NCBI GenBank assembly: GCA_964016885.1
Contig: OZ024759.1
Location: 15,996,001 to 16,060,000 of the forward strand
Direction of reading: 5' to 3'
DNA: 64,000 nt
From: Eledone cirrhosa
Taxonomy: Eukaryota
The stretch's first letter is position 1; each line of letters begins with the position of its first letter. Under the pieces are notes generated by a model. That model searched no databases and was not told the origin of the DNA. It saw nothing but the letters and a program-made list of their open reading frames with translations. Position numbers and translations under genes: made by a program. Of this stretch, positions 8,211 to 63,469 are shown one piece after another.

Positions 8211-8712
8211 CTTTCATATACATATATATACAAATACATATATATAAAATATTTCTCTATGTTTTTTGTCCAAATTACTTCAAAAGAACGTTATAAAGAT
8301 GCTAGAAGGTTTTGTGTGGAAATACGATTATTTTCTCATATCATCTCAGAACGATCGATTTTATGATCAAACATAATCAACTTTGCGTTTAGGTTGAGAA
8401 TTCTAATAGAGACAAAAGACCAGCATACTGGGTGAGGATGGAGTGGCGGCAATCGATTATATTGACTCCAGTACATGACTGGTACATTATTTAATCGACC
8501 TCGGAAAAATGAAAGGGGCTGTTGTTCCAGGTGGGATTGGAACTCCGAGTGTAAAGAGTTGTAAGAAATACTGTTTGTCATTCGTCCAGCGCTCTACCGA
8601 TTCTGCCTCTCCATCACCCTCTATGTGTCGATATTACATAAGCAACTAAGGAGAGCAACAACTGAAAAAATATTACTATATATCTGTATGCATACACAAA
8701 CATATATATATA

Positions 8713-14711: not shown

Positions 14712-14989
14712 GCACACACACACAGGCGCTCTCTTTCTCTCCCTAACTATCTATCTATCTATCTCTCTCTACGATGGACACATGTGCTGAGCTCGCTCGG
14801 TAAGTTTTTGTTTAAATTCATACGGAAATTGTAAACTGTAAACTTTCATTTTTGTATCATTTTGTAGAGGGACTGCCAGGTCAAATTTTGATCTGGTCGG
14901 TCTCTCAAAATATTCTGCGCCTTTGGGCGAAATAGTATTGTGAACATTTTATCTTTCGAAAAACTTCGAAAAACCCTATTTTGAGAAAA

Positions 14990-15166
14990 ATGGCTGAAGC
15001 ATCCTCACCATCAATCAAAGAAGGAAAGGGGAAGTCATACTCACAGCTTCCCCCTGCCACTGTCACAGCAGCAGATGCCAAAGGCAGAGGTCAGAGAGAG
15101 GAAGAATTGTCTTCACCTGTTGACCGACCACTAGATGTAGCCACAACTACACAAGAATTTGAAAAC

Positions 15167-15197
<31 letters not shown>

Positions 15198-16813
15198 GCA
15201 ACAATAAAGACAGCAAAAACAACAACAACACAAACGTCACAAGTATCCACACACGAAACGAGAAAGACAACAACAACAACAAAGATGAAAACAACTCAAA
15301 CGACGAGAAACAAAACAATACTAATATCCAAAACGAAAACAAAATATCTTTTGCACAAACGGCTAAATTATCAGTCGCTTATGTGCTGGAAGATATTTCA
15401 AAAGCAAAAGAAATGCTGGAAAAAGCCAAGAAATATGTGTCTTTTGGCGAAAACGGATCGTTTTCTATACATTCACCTCCGGAGCTAAAAAGACAGACGG
15501 AATTACGAACTGTCGTATTCCGAACAATTTTAAATAAAACAAAGAAACCAGCGCAACCATCTCAAGCAGAAACTCAGTTAGTCTTGAAAGACGCGATGAG
15601 AGACATCACTTTCATACAAAAGGATAAACTCTATGGGAGTTTATCCATATTGATGAAAGACGAATTGGCGGCAAAAAAATACTCTGTGTCGCCAATTCGG
15701 TCCACACACTACACCTTCTTCCCCACCTACATGGGTAAAAAAACCCAGAGGATATGGATAACCACCATCACCCCAAACATAAACTACTGGTGGTTACTAA
15801 CCGGTTTCCTCAATTTAGACGAGGACAACCTCATCTCAATAGGGAAGGCATCCGGCGACGCGTTCAGTGGAACGAGCCTCGAAGTTCTGACCCAAATAAG
15901 GCCAGAACGCATCGCCCAAATCCCTGAGCGCGTCATGCTGGATGACCGTACCCACCTCAACATTATTGTGGAGGGTAGGCGTCCCTCCTGTTACCTCTGT
16001 GGCAATAGAGGTCACCTGAGGGCTGCCTGTCCCCAGCTCACACAGAAAAAAACACTGCTACCAACACCAACACCACCCCAACTACAACAACAAAAACAAC
16101 CACAACAACAACAAAAACCAACAACCCCACCACCACCACCACCACAACAACAACAACAACAAACACGTGAAAAAATAACACAGAATACTGTCCCACCCAA
16201 TCCCTCCCCACCCAAAACAAATACAAAAACACGCACACCGCAAACACTACCAGAAAACATACCCCTCCCACCCAACAAGGAAGACGAACCTCTTTCGTCG
16301 CAAGACGAAAAAGATCCCTTCCAACAAGTAAAAAGAAAGAAGAGGAGACGCACCACAGACACACATGTTAACTTTAACCCCCCCCAAGAGAACACAAACT
16401 ACACACAAACCACCCCTCCCTGTCACACAACACTAACTGCTACACAAAAAAAGACCTTACAATACACATACATGAACACAGACAACAAAGAATTACGGAA
16501 AACAATTTCAGCAAACCCTTCGGTCCAAACTGAAGGGCCAAACTTTATAACTGCTGTGGGACTACCTCATTTGAAAATGATAAAAGTCCCAATGCACTTG
16601 TACAAAACACTGAAAATAAATTTCACGGAGGACGTGGGCCCCCCCTGCGCCAAACCAATCAACCGCGTCCTCCTAAAAAATTTCACCCCCCCCACCCCAC
16701 CCAGACACCCACTCAACGACAAACACCCCAACCCCACAACACACCGATGCCCCTTCACTTCCACAAACCACAACCCCACCCAACAACCCATCCCCAACCA
16801 GCATGGAAATTGA
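14990..16813 (+). CDS. LINE ORF1 (gag-like, CCHC zinc knuckle, probable RRM, poly-N/Q/P linkers)
   Basis: First ATG at 14990. IIVEGRRPSCYLCGNRGHLRAAC knuckle; basic stretch VKRKKRRR; lies upstream of ORF2. Confidence 0.88.
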
Positions 16814-16868
16814 GCGGCCCGTTTCCCGGGACGCAGAGAGGTAAGTGCCTTTTCTCTTTACCACCAAC

Positions 16869-19800
16869 ATGGCTGTGCTAAGAGTAGGGTGTCTAAATGC
16901 GCGTGGCCTGGGCTCGTCTTGGAAGCAAGCAATGCTTCTAAATGACCTCAGGTCACAATCTATAAATGTGATGGTTATCTGCGAGGCCCGGATCAGCAGC
17001 ATGCGACAGCTAGCCCCCACCTTTGACGACTTTGAGATGCACGCATCTCTCTGTCAGCCCGGAGGTGGGGGTGGGGTTGTCGTTCTGCTGCAAAAACATA
17101 TGGGCCTTGCAACACAGATAGTTCACTTGGACCCAGGGGGTCGACTGGTGGTGCTGGACCTTGGCAGTGGTGAAGGTAGAGCCCTTAGGCTGATAGCCGC
17201 ATATGCCCCTTTTGGGACAGAGCGGCCCGACTTTTTCCAGCGTCTGGAGTCTTTTCTAGGGACGTCCCGTTCCCTGCTTTTAGTGGGGGATTGGAATGGT
17301 ATCCTGGATGCACGTTGGGACTATGCAGGGGCATGTCCCGATAGAGAGGGGTGCAACAGCCTCAAGGGGTTACTCGGCCGATTTGACCTGGCCGATAGAT
17401 TTCGACTAGATTTTCCGACGGTGCCAACCTGGTCTTGGTCAAATCGCAGCGGATCATCTAGATCGTACCTAGACAGATTTTTAGTTAGAAATAAGGACAG
17501 GGACTTTTTAAGTTGTCCAGAAATGCTCATGGTTGGCTATTCAGACCACAAGTTGGTGACCTGCATGGTCAACCTTGATAGAACGCATAGACAGGGCCCC
17601 GGTTACTGGAAGCTCAACTTGTCCTTGCCGGCAAGTAGAGCCTACAGGAATCGGATTAGTACGTTAGTTAAGGAACGGTTGACTGGAGCGATCGTCAACA
17701 GCAGGTGGTGGGTATCTCTAAAGAGAGAGATTAGAGTAGTCTCCATTGAATTTAGTAAGGTTCTAGCTGCGGATAGGAATAGGAAGGAAAGGGAGCTAAT
17801 AGATAGAGTAGAAGAGGCAATTAGAAGCGGCGACGTGGCCAGAGTGCTAGCGTCGAGAACGGCTTTGAGCCAGTTTTTCGACGCGAAGCACGAAGGCTGC
17901 GTTGTCCGAAGTAAAATACGTGCTCTAGGGAACGAGGGGGCCAAAGCTGTTAGCTGGGCCCGCGTGACAGAGGCCAACAGTGGAACTAAATCCACCATCC
18001 GGTCTTTGCGAGACCTGGATGGACGGGCGATTCTTGAGCCTAAGCAGATGTGTGAGGCCTTTCAAAGGCACTTTGCCCGACTGTTCGGGAGGGGCGGGGA
18101 GCCGGTTGGAAACGTGGACTTCGGTCCATACCTCGACGGCCTGCCGCGCCTCTCGGACAGGGAGGCGAAGTCTTGCGAGGAGCCGATTTCGGCCGCTGAG
18201 ATAGAGAACGTGCTGGGCCAATGCGGCAAACGCAAATCCCCGGGTCTCGATGGTCTTCCTTACGAATTATATCTAGCTATGCCGGACTTGTTCCCCGATC
18301 TCCTCGAGGCGGTCTACTGCAACTGGCAACAGAACGGGAGAATTCCCTGTACTGTGACCAAGGGCGTAGTCACGCTAGTGAGGAAGGACGAGAACAAGGG
18401 GGACGAAATAAGTAACTTCAGGCCCATAACTCTGCTAAATACAGAGTTACAGATTTTGGCCAAGGTGCTAGCAAAGAGGTTGGCGCTTGTCGTGGGCAAC
18501 CTGGTGGGAGATGCGCAGACATGCGCTATCCCGTCCAGGTCCATCCATGACAACCTCCACCTCATGCGATACATCATAGAGAGGGTTGGGAACGAACCCG
18601 GCTTTGGTGGGGCTCTGATCAACTTGGATCAATCTAAGGCGTTCGATAGGGTCGACCATGGTTACCTGGATGCGGTGCTAGCGGCGGCAGGCTTCGGACC
18701 CGTTTTCAGGGGCTGGATCACTGCTATGCACAGCAGCCGCATCTGCTCTAGGGTCAAGGTGAATGGCTACCTCTCGGAGCCGTTCAAAATCGCGCGGTCC
18801 ATCCGACAAGGGTGCCCTCTCTCCTCCCTTCTGTATGTGTTGACTCTCGAGCCACTACTGCGGAAGTTGGAGTTGTTGCAGGGCATCCCTTTGGAACCGG
18901 GATTGCGGAAAGCGGTGTCAGCCTACGCCGATGATGTGACAGTAATGGTGTCGACGGCCTCCGAAATCGAGGCGGTCGGCACCTTACTGGAGGAGTACGA
19001 AAAGTTCACAGGGGCTAAGCTGAACCGGGACAAGTCGATCGGTTTGCAACTCGGCACGTGGAGGGGCAGACCGATGCCCTCCGATGGCGTCGTCGGACGC
19101 TGGACGGAGGGCCCGGTGAAGTTGCTCGGGGTCTGGTTCGGACCGGACCTCCAGGTGGAGAAAAACTGGGCGGAGGTTACGAACAGGGTGTTTGCACTGA
19201 CCCAGAAGTGGGCCAGTTGCAAACTATCCCTGAAAGGTCGGGCGGAGGTGGCGAACACTTATATAGCGTCCGTCATCTACTACCGCCTGACTGTAGTGCC
19301 CTGCCCAAGGGAAACCCTCACCAAGATGGAGCGCGCGCTCTTCCAATTCCTTTGGAAGGGGCGGGCTCCTATGGTGAGGAGATCCATCTGCTGTCAACAC
19401 CCTTCGAAAGGAGGGCTGGGGATGCCGTGGCTAATGATGCGTAAACACGCATTAAGGCTACGGCACCTCTACGTATTCCTCACCGGACAACCGGTGTGGG
19501 CCTCGTTTGTGAGACGAACCTTTCCCAGACTCGTCTCACTCACCGAGCTGCAATCCTGGGTCAAGCAGAGACCGAGAAAACTGGGCGCCTGGCACACTGA
19601 GTGTGCCCAGGCGCTCACCGCCCTCTGGCAGGCGGATCCGGTTATCAGTGGAGACTCCACCGCAACATTCTATAGAGGGCTGGTACGCAGCAGATGCGAC
19701 GACGCCCTTGGAGAAGCCCTAGACATGGAGGAGGACGAACTGGCCAGCCTGTTCGGTAGGACATTCAGCCCGGGACCTATGGACAACTTCCAGAAGTCCC

Positions 19801-20306
19801 TGGCCTGGCAGTGCTACCGAGGGGCTTTACCCGTTCGAGAAAGGCTCTACAGACACGGGCGCCCGGGTAGGGACCCCGCCAAAAAGATCTGTCCCAGATG
19901 CGTGTGCGACGAGGAAACCGTTGCACACGCATTAGTACACTGCTCGGGCATTGCCGATCTGTGGGGCTATGTCGAACAACTGCTGTCAAGGGTGGGACCG
20001 ATCCGGTTGACCACCGAGTCTATTGTAATGATCAAGCCGCCTCCCCCCTTCAAAGATGAAGCAGAGGCGGTGTTTCTGTGCGTAATAGCCATGGCGAAAG
20101 AGGTTGTATGGTGGACGCGTCTGAAAGGACTGAGGTCAGGCACCTTTCTCTCTGGCCAACAACTGGTCCGTTTCTTCCGATATCATTTCGGAAGAAGGAT
20201 CAGGATGGAGAGAGAGGTGCTGCACCCCAGTCGTTTTTATGAAAGGTGGGTGAAAGTGGCGAGAATGGCCCGTGTGAATGGGCCTTCTCTTTACATAAGC
20301 CTGTAG
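16869..20306 (+). CDS. LINE ORF2: APE endonuclease + reverse transcriptase + C-terminal zinc finger
   Basis: APE motifs LNARGL, ICE, YAP, GDWN, YLDR, SDHK; GPGYWKLN; RT motifs KSPGLDGL, FRPITLLN, LDQSKAFDRV, RQGCPLS, YADD, LLGV; zinc finger CPRCVCDEETVAHALVHC. No stops. Confidence 0.96.
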   Translation: MAVLRVGCLNARGLGSSWKQAMLLNDLRSQSINVMVICEARISSMRQLAPTFDDFEMHASLCQPGGGGGVVVLLQKHMGLATQIVHLDPGGRLVVLDLGSGEGRALRLIAAYAPFGTERPDFFQRLESFLGTSRSLLLVGDWNGILDARWDYAGACPDREGCNSLKGLLGRFDLADRFRLDFPTVPTWSWSNRSGSSRSYLDRFLVRNKDRDFLSCPEMLMVGYSDHKLVTCMVNLDRTHRQGPGYWKLNLSLPASRAYRNRISTLVKERLTGAIVNSRWWVSLKREIRVVSIEFSKVLAADRNRKERELIDRVEEAIRSGDVARVLASRTALSQFFDAKHEGCVVRSKIRALGNEGAKAVSWARVTEANSGTKSTIRSLRDLDGRAILEPKQMCEAFQRHFARLFGRGGEPVGNVDFGPYLDGLPRLSDREAKSCEEPISAAEIENVLGQCGKRKSPGLDGLPYELYLAMPDLFPDLLEAVYCNWQQNGRIPCTVTKGVVTLVRKDENKGDEISNFRPITLLNTELQILAKVLAKRLALVVGNLVGDAQTCAIPSRSIHDNLHLMRYIIERVGNEPGFGGALINLDQSKAFDRVDHGYLDAVLAAAGFGPVFRGWITAMHSSRICSRVKVNGYLSEPFKIARSIRQGCPLSSLLYVLTLEPLLRKLELLQGIPLEPGLRKAVSAYADDVTVMVSTASEIEAVGTLLEEYEKFTGAKLNRDKSIGLQLGTWRGRPMPSDGVVGRWTEGPVKLLGVWFGPDLQVEKNWAEVTNRVFALTQKWASCKLSLKGRAEVANTYIASVIYYRLTVVPCPRETLTKMERALFQFLWKGRAPMVRRSICCQHPSKGGLGMPWLMMRKHALRLRHLYVFLTGQPVWASFVRRTFPRLVSLTELQSWVKQRPRKLGAWHTECAQALTALWQADPVISGDSTATFYRGLVRSRCDDALGEALDMEEDELASLFGRTFSPGPMDNFQKSLAWQCYRGALPVRERLYRHGRPGRDPAKKICPRCVCDEETVAHALVHCSGIADLWGYVEQLLSRVGPIRLTTESIVMIKPPPPFKDEAEAVFLCVIAMAKEVVWWTRLKGLRSGTFLSGQQLVRFFRYHFGRRIRMEREVLHPSRFYERWVKVARMARVNGPSLYISL

Positions 20307-20580
20307 GTGGAAAAGAGGAAGGAACGAGGGAGCACCCCCTCTCTGTGCTCCTGAGGAAAAGGGTTGCACACTTTTTTCGGGGGTGTGTGCGACCCCCCAA
20401 GGCGCCTCCTCTCTATTGAGGATTTTGTTAAAAATTTTATTTTTGTTATATCTTATTTTATTTTTATATTTTGTTATTGCCTCCTCCTTATTGAGGACGC
20501 CTTTTTGTGTAAACTCCCCCCTTTGTACTTGTCCCACTTTTGATGCCCTAGTGGCAAATAAAAGAAACTTATCTCTCTCT

Positions 20581-21095
20581 GTAAGGATCAAACCGCCAGA
20601 CTCTTTCAAAAACGAAAGAGAGGCGGTTTTCCTCTGTACGGTGGCTATGGTGAAAGAAGTTATATGATGGACGAGGTTGAGAGGACTGAGGACAGATGCC
20701 TTTCTCTCCGGACAACAATTGATTCCCTTCTTTAAGTATCACTTTAGAAGGAGAATCAGGGTGGAGAGAGAGGCACTGCACCCCAGTAAATTTACTGAAA
20801 GGTGGGTGAATGAAGCGAAAATGGCCCGAGTGATTGGGCCTTCTCTGTTTATAAGCCTGTAGGTTGAGGAAGAGAGCAAAGGGAAGAAAGGAGCACTTGC
20901 ACAACACGCTCCTCGAGTTGAGGGTTGTTCTATCGACGGGGTATGAAACAACCCATTTGTGGCGCCTCCCCCCTATTGGGGATTTCGATTGTTGAAATTG
21001 TTTGTTTTTATATTTTTTACACGACTGTATGTAAAATCCCCGGCATGTCTTTGTATTGTCCCCTTTCTTGTTGCGCCCTTGTGGCTAATAAAGAA
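20581..21095 (+). pseudogene. Older 5'-truncated Tx1 relative (ORF2 C-terminus + 3' UTR)
   Basis: IKPPDSFKNEREAVFLCTVAMVKEVI*WTRLRGLR..FLSGQQL..ARVIGPSLFISL aligns to the ORF2 end and has an internal TGA. Outer TSD ATCTATCTATCT(C/T)TCTCT at 14753-14770 and 21096-21113. Confidence 0.9.
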
Positions 21096-22295
21096 ATCTA
21101 TCTATCTTTCTCTGGTAGAAATCTGAGCAAAGACAAAGGACGAAAAGCATATTGACCTCGCTGATGCCAGAACTCAATACACGGAGTGCTGGAGTAGATC
21201 TGACGTTCTCTAGCATCTCTGTCAATTCGTTACAATATCGATTATGTAATCAATGGTTTTTTTAATGTTTTAATTACATCCTCTTATATTTACAATCAAA
21301 AGCAATCGATCAAACAATCAATGGACTCCTCCTCGTCTTCCTCCTCCTGCGCGAAAGCTTCTTTAACCAATCAATTCATTATTGCTGTTCTGAGGGCACG
21401 ATGGATTGGTAATAATCGGTAGAGCGTCGGACAACATGCTTTGTGGCATTGAGTTACGCCCCGACATTATCATACAGAACAAGCAACAAAATTAGATAAA
21501 AAAAAAGAAAATATTGGTTGACAATACTCTAATTCCATATAGAAGTCGGGCCCGTCTCCAAAAAGGGGGCATGGGGTGGTACTGACCTCCACCCCTATTT
21601 ATTAATGTTGTACCCTTAGATTTTGGAAAATTTATGGTAATATCTTTATTTCGAAACTCCGCCTGATAATTATTTTCGATTTAGATGGCTAGCCCTGGAA
21701 TGGCCCGAAGCCCCCTAATCAAGTCCCTACATCATACCCCAACCCCACTCTACTACCCCCACCCAACTACTGCCACCCCACTACTCCTACCCCACTATCC
21801 CACACATCCCAACACTACACCACACCACCTCATCACCAAATCATACACGTCACCCACACTACACCACACCACCTCATCACAAAACATACACTCACCACAT
21901 ACTCCACACCAATAGCACTTCACCTCCACACCCAACACCACCCAACACCACCCAACCCCCACGCCACCCCTACTAACCCCTTCCCTATCCCGAGCACTAA
22001 AGCCTGGTGACGGAGCTGATAGAATCCCACTCAAAACGAAGGGAGCAACTATGCAGGGTTTACTTACACACAAATAAAAGTAACGTAGCTAGGTGAAAGG
22101 GCGGGGCAGGTCGAACAAGGGGGTCCCGTCCCGGGCGACACTTCAATGGCGAGCAACCCTATTGGGTTAGTTATATTTTCAAATAAGTAGAGGTCCGCAG
22201 AGCGGAGGGTTTGCGACAAACTCAAGGGCTTCCCCCGGCAAGGCACACATGCTCTAGCTAAGCTACTGACAGATAAAACATAAACGTTACGAGTG

Positions 22296-22646
22296 TACGA
22301 GGGTCGACTGAAACGTTCATAGGGTGACCAAGATACTCTCATGGAATGACCAAATGAGGTTTATTTTTCAACATAGTCCCTGGAAAGAAACGATGCAGTT
22401 ATTGATAAGAAGGGTTGAAATTAATGCACGCAAGATTTCACAGCTCTAGCATCACTCCTTCATAGTTAGCCTATGACCAAGATACTCCCATGGAATAACC
22501 AAATGAGGTTTATTTTTCAACATAACCCCTAGAAAGAAAAGATGCAATTATTAATAAAAAGAGTTGAAATTAATGCATGCAAGATTTCACAGCCCTTGCA
22601 TCACTCCTTCATAGTCAGTCTAGGAAATTTTCAGCTGATCCTCGTA
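22296..22646 (+). mobile_element. Mariner-type MITE with internal ~148-bp duplication
   Basis: TA-CGAGGGTCGACTGAAA...TTTCAGCTGATCCTCG-TA termini; TGACCAAGATACTC block occurs twice. Relatives at 38510-38574, 39889-40027, 40285-40457 and 45028-45409. Confidence 0.75.
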
Positions 22647-22959
22647 TATTATTCGCTCGTGGCATCAGAATACCGAACGCTATGCACATGTGTTACAATA
22701 TCAATTATACGTGGTAAAAAAAAAAATTTATGAATAAAATTTATAAATATTAACTTACAGATTCTCTGAAGAATTTTCGTTAACCATTGTTGTCATTTTT
22801 TTTTCGCAGAATAGTAGGTAAAGTCCATGATATTTTTTAACATAATTTAAAGTGATATGTTATTTACTAAGAAAAGGTTGTTGGGTATTTTTCGGTGCAA
22901 TCAAATAGCGTTCTCTTGCACTAAAAGTGCCCCGGATATTTTTATGCTAAATGTCTCGC

Positions 22960-24135
22960 AGTTCGATTCCCGCCGAGGTTAACTTTGCCTTTTATCCTTA
23001 CAGGGTCGATAAAATAAAGTACCAGTAATGCACTAGGGTAATTGCTGGCCTTGTGCCAATAGTAGAAACAATTATAATTATTGTTTTTTTTCTTTTGGTA
23101 CAAGGCCAGCAATTACCCAGTGCATTACTGGTACTTTTATTTTATCGACCCTGTAAGGATGAAAGGCAAAGTTAACCTCGGCGGGATTTGAACCCAGTCC
23201 ATAAAGAAACAATTATAATTACGATTATTATTTGCAGTGTCGGTAGAGGGTCGGACGCCATGCTTTGACGTATAGAGTTACGGCCCTTGCCATTCTGAGT
23301 TCAAATCCCGCCGAGGTTAACTTTGCCTTTCATCTTTTCGGGGTCGATAAAATAAAGTACCAGTAATGTACTGGATAATTACTGGCCATGTGCCAAAAGT
23401 ATAAACAATTACTTGGTTACGTTGGGTACCTGAGTTAACCCTGGGTGGTTATCCCCCCCCCCTATTGGGGAATTTTTCATTGATGTATTTTTCTTGTTAC
23501 TTTGTTATTGTTATTTATATTTTTACACGTTTTCCATGTAAACCTCCCTCTGTCCCTGTCTAGTGTTTGGCCCCTATATGTCGGCCCTTGTGGCCAATAA
23601 ATGAAACCATCATTTGGTTACGTTGAGCTCAACTCCTGCCGACGTTAGCTTTGTCTTTCTTTTTTACGGGGTGGATAATATAAAGTACCAGTAATGTACT
23701 GGAGTCGATTTAATCGACTTTTCCCTCTCCCCAAATTACTGGCCTTGTGCCTTAATCAGAAACCATTATTTGGCCATGTTGAGAGGGTGGTGGATTGGCA
23801 GTATCGGTGGAGGGTCGGACGTCATGCTTTCCAGCATAGTTACGTCCCTTTACGATCTGAGTTCAAATCCCGCCGAGGTTGACTTTGCCTTTCATCCTTA
23901 CGGGGTCGATAAAATAAAGTACCAGTAATGCACTGGATAATTGCTGGCCTTGTGCCTTAATCAGAAACCATTATTTGGCCATGTTGAGCTCAAATCCCAC
24001 CGACATTAGCTTTGCCTTTCTTTTTTACGGGGTCGATAAAATAAAGTACCAGTAATGTACTGCGGTCGGTTTAATCGACTCCCCCCCCCCCCCTTCCTAC
24101 CAAAAAAAAAATTTGCTGGCCTTGTGCCTTATTGT
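22960..24135 (+). mobile_element. Stacked array of about 6 Meta/MESC-like SINEs (one inverted, 23081-23200)
   Basis: Repeated B-box GAGTTCAAATCCC, core CCTTTCATCCTTACGGGGTCGATAAAATAAAGTACC and tail GGCCTTGTGCC..AGAAACA/CATTATT. Confidence 0.9.
23425..23613 (+). mobile_element. Tx1-family 3' UTR stub inserted in the SINE array
   Basis: CCCCCCTATTGGGGA..T-rich..GTAAACCTCCC..GCCCTTGTGGCCAATAAA matches the 3' UTR layout at 20968-21095. 12-bp TSD TTGGTTACGTTG (23413-24, 23614-25). Confidence 0.7.
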
Positions 24136-29810: not shown

Positions 29811-31076
29811 TCTTATATAGGCACTGTACAGTGATTTTGTTTTTTTTTCTGAGACATTCTAACCACATGTCCATGGTATCAGAGCTGTGATCTCACAATT
29901 TGGAGAAGTAGCAGCTCTACTTGGAGCAACTTTCTTATCTCCAAGCTACGCACTCTATTCAGAACGTTACTCCAAAGACCCATAATTAAATAAGAAATAT
30001 TTATGCTGGAACCCAGTTTATATAAGAATATTTACGGTATATCTAAAGCAGATATAGATATTTTGTTATAATTAGAAGCCTACGTTTCAGCTTTCGAGAA
30101 AGATGGCTGTAAATGAGAAAGATATTATATTTGCTTTCATAGGAAAATGTCATGCTTTATTAAGCTTGAGCAAAATAACTTCTAAATCAATATCTTCTTC
30201 CGTATATATCCAGATATCTGCCTCTTAGCAATAAAATGGTTGAGAATTTGATTTAAAAGAGTTAGGTTAGTGTTAATATATTTTATGCAAGCAGTGTGAG
30301 TTCCCCACCTCTGAACTCATCCATCTTGTTCCTTGCTCCTTGTGTCTTACAACTGTGACCCATTTTTATCTTTCATAATTCGTAGCTGTAATTCTAGCCA
30401 TATATAACTACTTTAATAAATCATTTTTAGAAACACGCAAAAGAAAGTAATTACACGCGAAATATCAATAAACATATTGGTATTATACATAATACATAAT
30501 TAATATGTAGTATTAGCTGTCAAATATTGCCCCAGTAATAAGATGAAAACAAATGTTTAATTGCTATATCGATTACGATGAAGCTTTTGCAATATATTGA
30601 TTGAAATCTCCCCATTTAGTAAACGATAATGATTGTTGTCAATATCGTAATTGAGTGGTTGCCAAATATATTTTGTAGTATAACTCTGATACGATTTTTG
30701 CCCCAAAAAATGTGGAACCTATATCTATATTGTAATGACAATCTTCCCAACCATGATTTTAAGAAGCCATTAAATGAAAGAAAAATTGTTTTAGACGGAG
30801 AATTTTTGATATAAAAACATTTAATAAAATTCTATTGAATTTTATTAAAATATAACTTATCTCAAATAAACATTTTTACTGGTGCTTTTGTTATTCTATA
30901 ACTCAGTTCGTGGTTTCTGTCACCTTGATAATGTATTGAGCTTCCTATTGTGAATTCCTTGCTGGTTTACTGTCAAACCAGAATAAGAGTTATGATTGTC
31001 TATGATCATGTCTTTGGTTTTCTTTGCACTGACGTTGAGGCTAAGAAGCCAAGACCATTGCCATGGTCGCTAATCG

Positions 31077-31300: not shown

Positions 31301-31427
31301 AGAATAAAAAAAATAGTTATCACAATCCTGGCGGTTCATGTACAGAGCGAGATATAGTTAAATAGAAACTATTCTTGGCATATCCCTATAAAATAAAGTA
31401 GAAGTATAATTTTTTATATATTAATAT

Positions 31428-31803
31428 GTGATTCCTCCGCAGGGTCTTTAGAGTAAGGTTACTCGATAAAGTGCGTAGTTCGGAGATGAGAGAGTCATTC
31501 TAGGTAGAGTCGCTACTTCTCCGAATTGAGAGATCACATCTCCAATACTATGGACATGTGATTAGAATGTCTCAGGAAAGAATCGCTGGACAGATTTTAC
31601 GGGCGAAACCAACAGGTAGGGGACCCAGGAGTAAATTCCGAGCAAGATGGTTGATAACATCCATGAGCTTGGCTGGTTATGCTTGGGGATCCAGCCGGAT
31701 CAGTTGGAGACGGTTGCTTCTGACAAGACCCGCTGGAAGTAGTGTTTAAGGACTCTACTCCCACAACCCTGTCAGGAATAAGTGGGCGAAGAAGAAGTAG
31801 AAG
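31428..31803 (+). pseudogene. RTE-clade LINE 3' fragment
   Basis: FLRRV....LDKVRSSE.RE...LLLRIERSHLQYYGHVIRMSQERI....L...PTGRGPR with stops and a frameshift; (GAA)n tail; 12-bp TSD ATATATTAATAT (31416-27, 31804-15). Confidence 0.88.
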
Positions 31804-32206
31804 ATATATTAATATATAATTTCTAAGTTTGGTACTGGGCTATTGGGAGAGTCGTTAAATCTACCCTAGTACTTCACTGATATACTATATTATATCGACC
31901 TCGACAGGATGAAAGGCAAAGGTGACCGGGATGGGATTTAAACTCAGAACGTAAAGAGCCATCAGTAAATGTCACAAAATATTTTGACCGACGTTCTACA
32001 GATTCTGCTATTCCACTATAAATATACAATTATAACGAAACGTTTTGATGCACCAGGCTTCTAAATGTTTTTTTCAAACTGATATTAATTTTACTTTATA
32101 TAGAAGAACAGTTTTTAAGAATTTGTAATTCAGTATTATATATATCTTTGTATGTGGGCTTAAGTATAAATATATACATGGATATATATATGTGTATGTA
32201 TTAGTA

Positions 32207-39544: not shown

Positions 39545-39888
39545 ATTAAATGTTCTTAAACACTCTTTGATTGTTATTTATAAAGTATATATATATATAT
39601 ATAATACTGAAACGAAGTCATCAGATATGACCAAATAATCTTCGATCGATTTCCGACTCGTTCGATGTGTTAATTTAGGTTAGTGTCCTTAAGATAGCAA
39701 ACCAAATGAAAACAGAGTGCACACTAATACGTTAAATATTGAGAAGTCAAATATTAACTAATACGTTAAATATCGATTTCGTGTGGGTAGAGAATTAGAT
39801 TCTCTCTTCCCGGATTAATTCATTAGTTTCCACTACTTCATCTGCTGGCGACAGTCCATAAAGTTTCATCTGTATATATATATATACA

Positions 39889-40457
39889 TACGAGAATCGG
39901 CTGAAATTTCATAGGCTGACCAAGATACTCTCATGGAATGACCAAATGAGGTTTATTTTTCAACATTTCACAGCTTTAGCATCACTTTTTCATAGTCAGA
40001 CAATGAATTTTTCGGCTGACTCTCGTCTGAACGCTTCCATATTTCCTTTCTATTGTTCTGTATATCCACTAATTATGAAGGAGAGTATCTTAGTCAGCCT
40101 ATGAACTTTTCAGCTGATGTATCTATGTATGCATGTTAGTATATATGCATGATGTATGTGTGTATGCATATATGCATATATGCATGTATACATGTATGTA
40201 CGTATATGTATGACACTCTTTGTTGCAAATTGTAATTGATTTGACAGAGGGATTCCTTTTTCTTGCAGATAATCGTAAATAGTCGTAAGTTGACTAAGAC
40301 AGATTGATGCTAGAGCTGTAAAATCTTGCATGCAATAATTTCACCTCTTCTTATTAATAACTACATTGTTTCTTTCTTGGGACTATGTTGAAAAATAAAC
40401 CTCATTTGATCATTCGAGAGAGAGTATCTTAATCTCTTAGTCAGCTGATCCTCGTAC
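39889..40457. mobile_element. Mariner-type MITE copies/fragments (same family as 22296)
   Basis: TACGAGAATCGGCTGAAA start; GACCAAGATACTCTCATGGAATGACC block; rc copy ending CAGCTGATCCTCGTA. Confidence 0.75.
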
Positions 40458-43604: not shown

Positions 43605-44297
43605 AGGCGGTCGATTGGCAGAATAGGTAGAGCGTCGGATACCATGCTTCGCGGCATAGTTACGTCCCTTTACGTTCAAATCCCACCGAGGTTAACTTTA
43701 CCTTTCATCCTAACAGGGTCGATAAAATAAAGTACCAGTAACACACTAGGGTTGATTTATTCGACTTTCCTCTCCCCCAAAATTGTTGACGTTGTGGTTA
43801 AATCAGAAACCCTTATTATAAGGCAACAGGGCAGTGGATTGGCAGTATCGGTAGAGGATCTGACGCCATGCTTTGTAGCATAAAGTTACGCCCCTTTACT
43901 ATCTGCGTTCGAACCCCGCCGAGGTTAAATTTGCCTTTCATCCTTACGGGGTCGGTAGAATAAAATACCAGTCACACACTGGGGTCGATTTAATCGACTT
44001 TTCCCCCACCCAAATTGCTGGCCTTGTGCCTATATAAGAAACTAATATATGGCAAGTCCCGCCGAGGTTAGCTTCGCTTTTCATTCTTACGTGGTCGATA
44101 AAATAAAGTACCAGTAATACCCTGGGGTAATTGCTGGCCTTGTGTCTATACAAGAAACCATTATTATAAAGCAAATCCCGACGAGGTTAGCTTCGCCTTT
44201 CATCCTTACGGAGTCGATAAAATAAAGACCCAATAATGCACTGGGAGAATTGCTGGCCTTGTGCCAAAAGTAGAAACAATTATTATAAGGCAACAGC
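43605..44297 (+). mobile_element. Head-to-tail array of 4 Meta/MESC-like SINEs
   Basis: Four cores, each followed by a TTATTATAAGGCAA-like target remnant. Confidence 0.9.
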
Positions 44298-45027: not shown

Positions 45028-45409
45028 TACGAGGTTATGCTAAAAAGTTCGTAGTCTGACTCAGATTGATGCTAGAGCTGTGAAATCTTGCAGGTATTAA
45101 TTTCAACTCTTCTTATTAATAACTGCATTGTTTCTTTCCGGGGACTATGTTGTAAAATAAATCTCATTTGGTCATTCCAATAGGGTATCTTGGTCAGCCT
45201 ATGAAGGACTGATGCTAGAACTGTGAAATTTTGGTCGGCCTATGAAGGAGTGATTCTAGAGCTGTGAAATCTTGGATGCATTAATTTCAACTCTTCTTAT
45301 CAATAACTGCATTGTTTTTTACCAGGGACTATATTGTAAAATAAACCTCATTTGGTCATTCCATGAGAGTATCTTGGTCAGCCTATGAACATTACAGGTG
45401 ACCCTCATA
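45028..45409 (-). mobile_element. Mariner-type MITE with internal duplications
   Basis: TACGAGG...CCCTCATA termini; rc of the 22296 body. Confidence 0.75.
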
Positions 45410-46131
45410 TTGTGTTCTGCTAATAGTATTCCTTCAATCCATATCACTAATCCTCTATTCTTGTAGGAATTTTTTTATACAGTCATTGTGCTGTAAACTA
45501 ATGTTTTGGTATTGTGTTTTAATAGTCCACCTTCCATCATTAATCAGTTATTCTTGTAGGGAAATATTTATACAGTCGTTGTCTTGTTAACTAACGTTGT
45601 TCTATCTTCTTATATTTTATGTTCTACATTGTAGGCAATTACAAATATCCCTCCTTCCCTTGTTGTTAGCATAGAGTGGAGTGGCAGGAAAATGTCATAC
45701 GTAATTTTATATTCAAAACAACGGGGATAGGGGTGAGATTTTCGTAATTTTCACGTTGGCAATCAAATTTGTAAATCACTTCCTCATTAGCAAGTTCATT
45801 CTAAGGTTTGTAGGTTTTGTGGGGTTAGTTATTTATGAGAGTTTTTCTTTGCGTTTTTACAATACATTATTAAGGTGAATTTATGGGCCTAATACAATAC
45901 ATTTGGCGTTCTGATTTATGAGTTGTTGTTCCTTATATGCATTAACGTATGTGTGTGTGTGTAGTATAGATATATATATATATTCATATATACATATACA
46001 TATAAATTTATATACATATACATATTTATATTCATACTATATATATATTCATATTATATGCATATATAAATTCATATACGTACTCATATATATATGTAAA
46101 TTTATATATACTTATATACATATATAAATTA

Positions 46132-47387: not shown

Positions 47388-48095
47388 AAGATACTATAAG
47401 CATTTGAACTGACAAACCCATTTTTTATATATTTTCTGCTAAATAATTACAGGATGTTAAGTGTAAATTAACATCCACGCATGTGCGACATTGGCAGTAT
47501 CTGTAGAGGGTCGGACGCCATGCTCTGCAGCAAATAGTTACGGCCCTTTATGATCTGAGTTGAAATCCCGTGGAGGTTAACATTTCTTTCATCCTTACGG
47601 GATCGATAAAATAAAGCACCAGTAATACACTGAGATATTGCTAGCCTTGTGCCAAAAGTAGAAACAATTATTTTTAGCATAATTGATTCAATTACTTTAA
47701 AAACCAATACCTTTACTCTAATACTGCAAATTTTCACAAGAGTTTAGATACTATAAGCTTTTGAATTGACAAACCCATTTTGTAGTATAGAAGCTGTAAG
47801 CATTTGAACTGACAAACCCTTTTAAATATTTTCTGCTAAATAATTACAGGATGTTAAGTGTACATTAACATCCACGCATGTGCGACATTATTTTTAGCAT
47901 AATTGATTCAATTACTTTAAAAACCAATACCTTTGCTCTAATACTGCAAATTTTCACAAGAGTTTAGATACTATAAGCTTTTGAATTGACAAACCCATTT
48001 TGTAGTATGGATGCTGTAAGCTTTCGAATTGACAAACCCCATTTATATATATATATATCTTTTTTTTTTCTGCTAAATCCTTGCAGGATGTTAAT
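47388..48095. repeat. ~220-bp tandem duplication, one unit carrying a SINE (47490-47670)
   Basis: CATCCACGCATGTGCGACATT|ATTTTTAGCATAATTG is intact at about 47870-47905 and split by the SINE at 47490. Confidence 0.85.
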
Positions 48096-49928: not shown

Positions 49929-50802
49929 TACTGGTACTTTATTTTATCGACCCCGTGAGGATGAAAGGCAAAGTTAACCTCGGCGGGATTTGAACTCAGA
50001 ACGTAACGGGCCATAAATCCATGCTTTGCAGCAATGGTGTCTGACGCTCTACCGATACTGCCAATCCACTACCTACGATTTTAATAAATAATGGTTCCTT
50101 GTATAGGCACAAGGCCAGTAATTAAATCGACCCCAATACGTTACTGGTACTTTATTTTATCGACTCTTCCAGCGCATCTACCTTACCATCCTCCGAGGAA
50201 ACGCTTTCTCCATTCTGTCCGCCGGGACTGTGGGAGCGACCAACACGAGGGACCCCATTTGCTCACTATACAGAGAGATGGGGAGGGCGAGAGAGATGGG
50301 GAGGGCGATGGTGGTGAGAGTTCGGCTCTTCAGTGTTCGGACACGTTGCATCTGTCAAGAGTGTGTATTGATGTACTCTGTTGTAATAGAAGACATCGAA
50401 TTGTTACGAATGTTTTGTCTTTGAAGATAGAAAAGTGCTTTATTTTGTTCATCCTTTGTGGCTATATTAGTTGCTGTGGATTGGCAGTATTGGTAGGAGG
50501 GGTCGGACGCCATGATTTCCAGCGTAGTTACGTCCCTTTACGATCTGAGTTCAAATCCCGCCGAGGTTGACTTTGCCTTTCATCCTTACGGGGGTCGATA
50601 AAATAAAGTACCAGTAATGTACTGGGATAATTGCTGGCCTTGTGCCAAAAGTAGAAACAATTATTCTTTACATTGTTATCGACCCCGTGAGGATGAAAGG
50701 CAAAGTTCTTCTCAGGTGGGATTTGAACTCAGAATCGTGACGGGCCATAACTCCATGCTTTGCAAGCATGGTGTATGACGCTCTACCGATACTGCCAAGC
50801 CA
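49928..50802. mobile_element. Cluster of Meta/MESC-like SINEs (-, -, +, -)
   Basis: Copies at about 49928-50075(-), 50090-50165(-), 50475-50665(+) and 50675-50800(-). Confidence 0.88.
50166..50470 (+). pseudogene. CRE-clade retrotransposon 3' end
   Basis: Translates LFQRIYLTILRGNAFSILSAG, the CRE C-terminal QR.S....RGNA motif; similar to 61233-61290. Confidence 0.6.
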
Positions 50803-51096
50803 CTGACCTTGCAATTTCAATAAATAATGAATCACTGAAACGAAGGCAAAAGAAGATATATATTTTTTTTTTTTTTTGTTCTCTCTTGTCCCTTTATTTA
50901 TTCATTAGGGTCGAGTTTAAGACTTGCAGTGTTGCATATCTGTATGGTTTCTTGCTGTGTCTTATTTGCTTGGTTGTGTAGTTTTCTCAGCTCTTTATAT
51001 TTATTTACATTCCTTTTTCGCTTTCTCTTCCTCTGCTTGCATTCATTATCATAGAATCCTTTGTAATTGTATCTTAAACACTCACAAGCACGTATT

Positions 51097-52977: not shown

Positions 52978-53589
52978 TCTATATATATATATAAAGGAAT
53001 ACGTAAAGTTTTGTTGCAGATGATGATGTATGTATGTGTGTATGTGTACATGTATGTATGTGAATATCTGTGTATGTGTATATGTGTATATGTTTGTATG
53101 TGTGTATGTGTATATCTATGTATGTGTGTATGTGTATATCTGTACATGTGTATATGTGTATATGTGTGTAGGTGTATATGTGTGTAGGTTTATATGTGTG
53201 TATGTGTATATGTTTGTATGTGTGTATGTGTATATCTATGTATGTGTGTATGTGTATATCTGTACATGTGTATATGTGTATATGTGTGTAGGTGTATATG
53301 TGTGTATGTGTATGTGTGTATACGTGTGTATGTGCGTGTGTATATATATGTGTGTATATGTGTGTGTATGTGTGTATATGTAAATGAAGTAACAACAAAC
53401 AACAATGATCGATTTCTTTACTTAGTCACAAGATCAATATTTACCATGTGATAAGTGATATACTTGACTGAATCAATCCCCCGCACGTATCATCTATATC
53501 TGATAGCTATTTTATCGATCCGGGGTCATTAAAGTCAAATTCTATCCTACAACGAAGTTTCAGATGACGAACGATAGATGTTTTTTTAA

Positions 53590-55150: not shown

Positions 55151-55506
55151 AATAAAATTTTCTCTCCTTCCTGACAATCATATTTAAGTCCTTTTTCTTG
55201 GATCGAACCTGACGTTCATACCTCCAGATCGATAAAATAACTAGCATTTATAGGTGATACGAAGGAGATGAGTCAATTGAATATATCACCCATCACATGG
55301 CATATATCGATCTTATGACTAAGGACAGAAATCGATCTCTATTATTTATTCTTCGACCTACATATACGCAAACTTACGTAAATACATACACATATACACA
55401 CATACACATATACACATATACACGCATACACACTTCATACGCAACGAATATTACCTATTTCTTTCTGTGCATGTATTTGTATATATATATATATATATAT
55501 ATACAC

Positions 55507-61760: not shown

Positions 61761-62743
61761 ATCAAAAAATATCATTAGAATAACGACTGATCTGGAGGAG
61801 AGATATGGAATAAAGCCTGATATAAATCTCTCACCCAGAGAAATCGGAAGATCCTATTCAATGTTCAAACAAGATAAAAAAATTGACCAATCTACAGAAA
61901 AAGTTGTGCATGGATACTTGAGACGTAAAACACAGACCATAGAGGGGATAAACCACTCAAAAAGCCTGGCATGGAGTTCCGACAGGTTTATGACATCACA
62001 CCTTGAGGGATATCTCTATGCAATACAGGAACAAGAACTCCCTACCAAATATCTGCTGCACAAAACAGGAGGGCCAGCAGCTGACAATAAATGTAGGCTA
62101 TGTAAAACAAAATCGAGGATGTAAGCCACATTGTTGCCAGCTGCGAAAGAATGTCATCTCGCTACTACCTCCCCATGAGACACAATGGGATAGCTAGAAC
62201 CATCTGGAACGCACTTCGGAAAACAAAATTAACAACAAACGAGGAAGAATATATTGAGACAGATGGCACTAAGGAATACTGGTGGAACATGAAAATAAAA
62301 ACTGCCACCAAATTAAAGCACAACCGCCCTGATATTGTTGTTTGGGACCACATATTGAAAACGTGTTCTGTTGTGGAGATCAGCTGCCCACTTGATGTAA
62401 ACGTTGTCAGAAAAATACAGGAGAAGGAGGACATCTACGGACCATTGATGAGGAGTTTACAAATCCAGTATCCAAGATACACCTTTAGCTTCATACCCAT
62501 CATTATTGGAGCTACGGGTTATATACCAACCCGCTTAGACCAAAGTATGACTGAACTTGGATTTGCGGACAAAAGGCGCAGCTCCCTAATTCATAGTCTA
62601 CAAATGGCTGCGATAGCTGGCGCCTTCAAAATTTGCAAAACATTCTTGCGATTCAAGGGATGACAATTTATTTTCGTTTACAACCTTGCCACCAGGAAGG
62701 TGGCCGGTCAAAAAAATATACTCGAAATTAAGAGAAAGAGATA
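61761..62743 (+). pseudogene. R4/Dong-clade RLE retrotransposon, 5'-truncated
   Basis: HG Y, EGYLYAIQEQEL.TK, CRLCK..(frameshift near 62110)..EDVSHIVASC, RHN, KHNRPDIVVWD, VEISCP, KEDIY, IPIIIGATG; stop at 62663; (TACA)n on both sides. Confidence 0.88.
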
Positions 62744-62807
62744 ACATACATACATACATACATACATACATACATACATACATACATACATACATACATA
62801 CATACAT

Positions 62808-63413
62808 AATATGAAAGAGTACTGGTGGAATGTTCTAGTAAAAAAAAATCAATAAAATGCAGGCATAACAGACCAGTTATAATGATATGGGACAGGGAAG
62901 AGAAGGTATGCACAGTAGTGGAAGTTAGCTGTCCAGCAGATGCCAATATAATATCAAAGATAAGTGAAAAGGTGAATATCTATGCAGAACTAATGAGAAA
63001 TCTGCAGATACTCCACCCTGATTATACCTTCAGATTTATACCTGTGATTATTGGGGCACTGGGATATGTTAGTAACTGCCTCAATACAAATCTTGAGAAG
63101 CTGGGCTTCACAGGAACAGAAAGAACACTAGTTAGGAAATTACAAGTACAATCAATTAATGGAACAGTAAAAATATGTAAAACATTCCAAAAATTCTGAT
63201 CTAATAACTCCATGTACACATGTACACATATAACTCAAAATATACACCTCCACACATACAATAACATCCATACCTGCACACACATGCATACATGCAGACA
63301 TATCTACTTAGTTGATGTTGTTTAAATTCCAATAAGAGAGTCTTGTATCTATGTTAGAAACCGACTCTCTCTCTCTATTGGCAAAAATTTATGAAATTAT
63401 AAAACCAGAAGAA
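62808..63413 (+). pseudogene. Second, divergent R4/Dong-clade 3' fragment
   Basis: EYWWN..RHNRPVIMIWDREEK.C.VVEVSCP..K.NIY..IPVIIGALG..CKTFQKF; RPD mutated to RPV; (TACA)n flanks. Confidence 0.85.
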
Positions 63414-63469
63414 CATACATACATAAAATTACGAAAGATGTGTCCAATTATTTACATCCAGGTAGTCAG

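Follow-up and report, generated by a model that had tools for sequence, protein, structure and literature searches.

A 64,000-nucleotide stretch of the Eledone cirrhosa genome (contig OZ024759.1, positions 15,996,001 to 16,060,000 of the forward strand; hereafter the window, numbered from its first base) contains a short interspersed element (SINE) whose 3′ end resembles that of long interspersed elements (LINEs) of the Tx1 group. The last 45–55 bases of the SINE match a Tx1-group LINE 3′ end and were likely taken from one, and sequence comparison suggests that the protein of a Tx1-group second open reading frame (ORF2) likely copies the SINE. The shared motif, G-N-C-CTNGT-G-N′-C followed by GAAA(C/T), is a small predicted hairpin common to three related LINE ends (LINE A, B and C) and 15 SINE ends. 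Because the SINE and Tx1-group LINEs, both in the window and in a second animal, share this hairpin motif, the SINE likely borrows a Tx1-group enzyme. We consider a stringent SINE–Tx1 partnership likely, the exact partner family not being among those seen. The SINE itself is about 190–220 bp long, dispersed and non-coding, with a common 3′ end, 5′ truncations and target duplications, as expected of a SINE. An earlier note on this DNA had called it dominant, which holds locally: 37 BLAST matches cover 3,228 bp (5.0% of the window), and its bin was the deepest of 30 depth bins in all 4 read runs.

The four 3′ ends on which that note had built its proposal, those of LINEs at 20545, 21075 and 23583 and of a SINE at 23046, are present at these positions. 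Scanning both strands for GC-rich stems of at least 3 bp around a CTTGT-like loop revealed 21 matches: 15 SINE 3′ ends, 3 LINE ends, 2 sites within ORF2 and 1 internal SINE hairpin. All 16 matches followed by a GAAA-like end were SINE (13) or LINE (3) ends. Decayed SINE ends near 43792, 47647 and 55008 did not fit the motif. With a weight matrix made from the 15 SINE ends, one indel being allowed, we scored 119,134 non-SINE positions ungapped and rescored the best 3,000 with the indel; LINE B, C and A ranked 2nd, 3rd and 7th, and ranks 1 and 4 were SINE remnants. LINE B (14.3 bits) and LINE C (13.8 bits) exceeded all 600 random controls, segments whose 99th percentile was 2.9 and whose maximum was 8.75, and the score of LINE A (8.0 bits) was reached by 1 of the 600. 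Within the window, LINE ends of other clades stayed at background: a 3′ stub without the hairpin motif at 50168..50470 (+), which we take from its C-terminal motif to be CRE-like and which served as a negative control, scored −6.5, a presumed RTE-like end −13.4, and two presumed R4/Dong-like ends −10.6 and 1.4. The earlier caveat that the CRE stub ends near 50453 in a weakly similar sequence therefore falls, and the stub was ruled out as the SINE's partner by this score. The SINEs lack the AATAAA of the LINEs and retain the hairpin, which is therefore not merely part of a polyadenylation signal. The spacing from hairpin to GAAAC is short in the SINE and in LINE A, B and C, unlike in the foreign LINEs described next.

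When prokaryotic genomes were searched with a profile, 56 loci came up, of which 41 belong to G001, a public bacterial metagenome-assembled genome (MAG) that carries animal-type DNA. The G001 LINEs lie in tandem arrays, are about 40% identical to the window ORF2 and form a sister branch of the octopod proteins; on the small contigs (L118–L158) they are full-length Tx1-group LINEs of several subfamilies, arranged head to tail in units of 6.4–6.8 kb, with up to about ten successive units. All 12 sister-lineage loci examined downstream of ORF2 carried GGC-CT(T/C/A)GT-GCC near the 3′ end, including L118, whose untranslated region (UTR) otherwise looks different. The order of these tails is a C-tract, a short A- or T-run, GGC-CT(T/C/A)GT-GCC, a second hairpin and AATAAA, and their stem orientation is that of the SINE, not that of LINE A, B and C. 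Small contigs held 69 of the 92 motif-pattern matches in G001, mostly one per repeat unit and all 69 of the GGC/GCC type. At the 3′ ends of 14 more distant Tx1-like loci we did not find the motif, which is therefore not Tx1-wide.

The foreign tails also led back to the SINE. A hidden Markov model (HMM) made from 9 of them gave 18 matches in the window, the best 15 of which were SINE ends, and six of these scored 9.6–15.2 bits, above the best of 20 shuffled windows (7.4). We also aligned the 50 nt whose last base lies just beyond the stem. The tails of four long SINEs scored 31–48 against the foreign loci L119 and L129, a level reached by 0 of 300 shuffles in all 8 comparisons, and 14–24 against LINE A, B and C, a level reached by 5 to 187 of 300 shuffles. 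Chance or convergent likeness of a short GC-rich hairpin, which the 11-base core and its 23 matches on the long G001 contig C1 might suggest, is already largely refuted and in our view extremely improbable: the position-anchored scores lie beyond the 600 controls, an independent foreign profile recovers the window's SINE ends, and the motif recurs in a second, unrelated SINE. A search of metagenome contigs with the tail pattern gave 117 loci, of which BLAST matched 2 to the window, neither at a SINE or LINE end.

That second SINE belongs to the G001 animal. Twelve regions of G001 small contigs, 207,800 bases in all, contained 19 matches to a relaxed pattern. The middle pair is kept in 16 of the 19, and 8 are copies of a tRNA-type SINE, dispersed and about 290 bp long, whose heads are tRNA-like. 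Its body contains the motif CCTTGGGAAAG, reported for mollusc CORE and Ceph domains (Kojima 2018, PMC5786205), and has no meaningful match to the window SINE body. It ends in GAC-CTTGT-GTC plus a second hairpin, and five of six copies scored have duplications of 6–17 bp. We observed two different heads on one CORE/Ceph-like body with the A-U middle pair (L196:8733-9052, L188, L193, L194 and L197). GC-rich non-coding units of 290–400 bp at L182:700-2090 and L191:3150-3445 likewise terminate in the motif hairpin together with a second one, and one of these units lies inside a long terminal repeat element with a duplication of about 15 bp; they could represent shortened UTRs of additional Tx1 families or non-autonomous elements of another kind.

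Among 17 chosen rows, the middle pair of the stem was G-C in 10, C-G in 3, A-U in 3 and unpaired in 1, whereas the outer and inner pairs were invariant. Covariation at the middle pair was 0.382, compared with 0.114 ± 0.044 after shuffling (0 of 500 shuffles as high), in rows that are related to each other and several of which were picked by the motif itself. The flipped pair noted earlier (GCC/GGC versus GGC/GCC) is thus borne out as a real compensatory change, with A-U as a third state in another animal. Two marks of a stringent pair, a shared 3′-terminal sequence and a stem-loop with compensatory changes, are present, the latter in few independent events. The motif might instead be kept for 3′-end formation, RNA stability or ORF1 binding, and so mark descent without being a signal for the reverse transcriptase (RT). 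It does stand just before AATAAA in the LINEs, and binding of the hairpin by ORF2 is putative; but two unrelated SINEs without AATAAA retain the motif, and characterised stringent LINEs need a shared 3′ stem-loop (PMC3747384, PMC3472496), so we regard this as improbable.

LINE A (14771..20568, +), a Tx1-group element of full length, is inserted in (TATC)n(TC)n and has an 11-bp duplication (TATCTCTCTCT) on either side, at 14760–14770 and 20570–20580. Its ORF1 (14990..16813, +) is open and weakly similar to the sister-lineage ORF1; Pfam gave no match to it, and one CCHC-like knuckle can be read from the sequence. Its ORF2 (16869..20306, +) is open and encodes 1145 amino acids with endonuclease, RT and zf-RVT domains, and the element ends at 20544..20568 (+) with the hairpin TGCC-CTAGT-GGCA, AATAAA and GAAAC. 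LINE B (20581..21097, +; hairpin 21075–21085) is a 5′-truncated member of a related family, matching LINE A in 219 of 280 aligned bases at the end of ORF2 and followed by a (TATC)n-like target. LINE C (23425..23607, +; hairpin 23583–23595) is a related 3′ UTR stub with an 18-bp duplication (23407–23424 and 23608–23625, 15 of 18 alike) that starts directly behind a SINE end. The 3′ UTRs of all three can be aligned with each other. They also share a second conserved hairpin upstream (C-run, CTATT, G-run; 20375–20420, 20968–20985 and 23450–23475), duplicated in LINE A near 20480. Read depth climbs sharply, with shared differences, over the last 40 bases of LINE C (23570–23607; run X1, 32,081 at 23570 versus 174 at 23563) and, in run X21, also over the LINE B end at 21063–21097. 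The step at LINE C points to another, more abundant element with an A/B/C-type tail, which has just those 40 bases in common with LINE C; we did not use it as support, as a SINE and another LINE are not distinguishable in this output.

With ORF1 and an ORF2 containing an APE endonuclease, RT and a C-terminal zinc motif, LINE A has the layout of the L1 superfamily, and the best relative of its ORF2 with a solved structure is human L1 ORF2p. The closest named relative of the protein is from Argonauta hians (67% identity in the RT region); outside octopods, the nearest named group comprises fish and turtle proteins named TX1 (RT identity 35–42%). By phmmer, ORF2 scored 214–342 bits against fish proteins carrying the automatic annotations TX1 or pol-like and 168 against human L1, which places the RT nearer to Tx1-named proteins than to L1 proper. 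In a quick tree, the sister lineage of the window ORF2 stood in an 8-row clade with 100 support in the Shimodaira–Hasegawa-like approximate likelihood ratio test (SH-aLRT). More distant relatives of the window ORF2 adjoin U1, U2 or 5S genes, a kind of target known for Tx1 elements (PMC4494074). Such elements in other MAGs (L159, L161, L162, L169 and L170) have 3′ ends abutting U1, U2 or 5S genes, and some contain U1-like pieces in the UTR.

The insertion sites suggested which LINEs the SINE depends on. SINEs insert before ATTATT-like DNA, and their loose ends are ATT-rich on either side. One copy (47490..47665, +; duplication 0–3 bp) has a surviving empty site in a tandem duplicate at 47880, so ATTATT is target DNA and not SINE tail. 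From 23230 to 24131, a SINE, stub C and three further SINEs follow one another with four occurrences of one 18–20-base target between them; this target is duplicated around both LINE C (15 of 18 bases) and the SINE at 23784..23968 (exactly, over 20 bp at 23764–23783 and 23969–23988). A head-to-tail array of four SINE copies with related 13–19-nt ATTAT-type spacers (43607..44280, +) is built likewise. In run X1, 239 contigs contained tail-to-head SINE joints, counted over the six joints listed, which span 23075/23076 to 23784–23791; part of the arrays could be due to later tandem duplication.

Thus a single LINE stub, C, shares the SINE's target signature, whereas LINE A and B are tandem neighbours within (TATC)n(TC)n, a preference also seen at position 20575 in the LINE A 3′ flank, where about 98–99% of contig depth and reads continue (TATC)n (17,209 of 17,502 in run X1 and 1,186 of 1,192 in run X21). 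Because of this target and their differing upstream tails, LINE A and B are likely not the partner. The possibility that these young, abundant families mobilise the SINE, either middle-pair orientation being tolerated, nevertheless has points in its favour: LINE A has two open ORFs, near-identical A and B contigs occur in organisms B and C (0–3 differences over 144–222 bases), the LINE B end scores best on the SINE matrix, and the short spacing to GAAAC is common to the SINE and all three LINEs. We consider it unlikely, given the SINE's ATT-rich flanks and upstream tail alignments that fall mostly within the shuffle range. The earlier proposal that a stringent Tx1 mobilises the SINE is partly supported: at clade level, in that the tail is of Tx1-group origin, but not at the level of the families. 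The partner is instead probably an ATT-targeting family, C-like or unseen, that has kept the G-C middle pair.

Another possible explanation is that the tail is of old Tx1-group origin and that another LINE (RTE, CR1 or Dong-R4) now copies the SINE with relaxed recognition. All three types were recently active in Octopus vulgaris (PMC13282606), folding of full-length SINE RNA does not favour the hairpin, and SINE duplications range from 0–3 to 20 bp. We nonetheless think this doubtful, and slightly more so than mobilisation by LINE A or B: the motif is intact in 15 SINE ends although seven aligned copies are 4–13% diverged from their majority sequence, the other-clade LINE ends of the window share nothing with it, and stub C has the site and duplication length of SINE copies.

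Several points weigh against a stringent SINE–Tx1 partnership. The main weakness is structural, as modelled by RNA folding. The stem is 3–4 bp long, its pair probability was 0.00–0.22 in four full-length SINE RNAs, and in the consensus fold of the SINE the tail is paired with the head instead, which means that either protein or refolding would be needed for the hairpin to form; corresponding values for the LINEs were 0.91–0.99 (A and B), 0.46 (C) and 0.10 (L118). Since the rows are related and some were selected by the motif, the covariation amounts to perhaps two or three events instead of twelve, and 3 of the 19 relaxed-pattern matches in G001, copies of one repeated unit, have an A-C mismatch at the middle pair. 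In the quick tree, the window lineage was sister to the named-TX1 group with 84% SH-aLRT support, in a tree without a true L1 row or Xenopus Tx1, which limits our assignment of LINE A, B and C to a putative Tx1 group. The LINE ends of other clades compared were those within the window (CRE-, RTE- and R4/Dong-like), not a genome-wide set of RTE, CR1, L2 and Dong-R4. Several single SINE copies have a short or unclear duplication, and an octopod LINE family with the exact SINE tail was not seen in the window data.

What we observed of the mechanism is the shared motif, its covariation and 3′-terminal place, and the target and duplication shared with stub C. We propose that a Tx1-group family whose middle pair was G-C supplied the SINE's tail, and that the SINE would be transcribed by RNA polymerase III from its A/B-box-like head. 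A Tx1 ORF2 would bind the small predicted RNA hairpin near the 3′ end (CUNGU loop, G-N-C stem), making recognition putatively stringent, and nick ATT-rich DNA, often directly behind an older SINE end. Target-primed reverse transcription from GAAAC would then produce head-to-tail arrays and duplications as long as 20 bp; the middle pair may have flipped later, in the common line of LINE A, B and C. The SINE–Tx1 partnership predicts insertion at ATT-rich sites and at the SINEs' own tails, which would account for the arrays. More broadly, we lean slightly towards the idea that an invertebrate Tx1 branch reads the 11-base RNA hairpin GNC-CUNGU-GN′C as a 3′ identity tag, captured by SINEs on two or more occasions in different animals, the dominant octopod SINE among them.

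The full-length SINE copy at 23784..23968 (+) carries A-box-like and B-box-like motifs; in the SINE head we assigned TGGCAGTATCGGTAG to the former and GTTCAAATC to the latter from the box consensus sequences, and neither ARAGORN nor Rfam found a tRNA there. The array around it also includes a near full-length copy of the short form (23230..23406, +) and two truncated long-form copies, one 5′-truncated with a C-tract and A-run preceding the hairpin (23626..23763, +) and one that is last in the array (23989..24131, +). Upstream, a 5′-truncated copy (22960..23069, +; hairpin TGGC-CTTGT-GCCA at 23046–23058) lies tail to tail with an inverted partial copy (23086..23206, −). Such inverted pairs occur at 22960–23206 and 50473–50803. 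Older relatives with decayed tails lie at 8400–8615 and 31840–32020 (both 28–30% diverged) and at 53407–53547 and 55200–55337. Searches of viral contigs with the SINE body pattern and a single ORF2 found nothing, and in five MAGs the long SINE matched nothing with an E value below 0.4.

The remainder of the window is microsatellite-rich animal DNA, 25,141 of its 64,000 bases being masked. A further repeat of high copy number, containing an internal unit of about 143 bp (22300–22680, 39888–40430 and 45062–45410), is deep in runs X1 and X21. Two 3′ fragments of LINEs with a restriction-endonuclease-type enzyme, which from their motifs we take to be R4/Dong-like, lie between (CATA)n repeats at 61780–62750 and 62810–63420. 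A LINE 3′ fragment ending in (GAA)n at 31400–31800, presumably RTE-like by its motifs, has a second partial copy at 29842–29981. Pfam detected no RT domain in the frames scanned (82 of 209 candidate frames).

In eel, UnaSINE1 and UnaL2 are said to be the model for stringent 3′ stem-loop recognition, experimentally shown there and predicted here from sequence. That pair, listed in PMC3747384, belongs to the L2 clade, unlike the Tx1-group LINEs here. Stringent pairs with a shared tail are an established class, to which plant and algal L1 pairs with compensatory hairpins belong (PMC3472496). ZmSINE2/3 with LINE1-1_ZM and SINEX-3_CR with L1-1_CR are likewise L1-superfamily pairs sharing about 50–80 terminal bases, and in the monocot pairs there is a hairpin whose stem shows compensatory changes and whose loop is conserved; both sets of pairs differ in coming from plants and green algae and in their UCU loop (PMC3472496, PMC3747384). 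Table 1 of PMC3747384 lists no Tx1-named partner and no cephalopod.

Within the Tx1 group, the closest parallel in mobilisation is SINEU and Tx1-Mar of crocodilians (Kojima 2015, PMC4494074, in the sections available): that SINE is also inferred to be mobilised by Tx1, shares its target preference and, for SINEU-3, forms tandem insertions around a duplication. However, SINEUs have snRNA heads and poly(A) tails, whereas the window SINE has a putatively tRNA-type head and a shared, covarying 3′ hairpin; the SINEU link rests on target preference, no LINE sharing the SINEU-1 3′ end having been found there. The microsatellite-specific Tx1 elements Kibi and Koshi similarly use simple repeats, (TC)n and (TTC)n, and the elements described here (TATC)n(TC)n and ATT-type targets; the same sections report no partner SINE for Kibi or Koshi.

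The octopus SINEs OK, OR1 and OR2, reportedly described by Ohshima and Okada in 1994, are tRNA-type cephalopod SINEs, as that of the window probably is; from its tRNA-Lys-like head we presume that the window SINE may well be OK. Ceph-SINEs are also tRNA-type but have RTE-derived tails (PMC5786205). In Octopus vulgaris, for which 80 L1-Tx1 consensus families are listed, 11.6% of the genome consists of SINEs (PMC13282606), and the literature found, as far as its text was available, names no LINE partner for octopus SINEs; for bivalve SINEs the partners named are CR1, CR1-Zenon, L2 and Nimb (PMC11481361, PMC4824008, PMC4758252). A full-text literature search, in the texts accessible, found no report of a Tx1-derived SINE tail, although Repbase or Dfam notes or older papers may record the link.

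According to Ohshima's proposal, L1-type elements began as stringent and relaxed later, the evidence coming from plants and algae only. One base pair with three natural states, in animal Tx1-group LINEs and two unrelated SINEs, makes stringent recognition testable by point mutants. If true, the finding would be a case of stringent, tail-based partnership within the L1 superfamily of animals and would give direct support to ancestral stringent recognition in L1-type elements.

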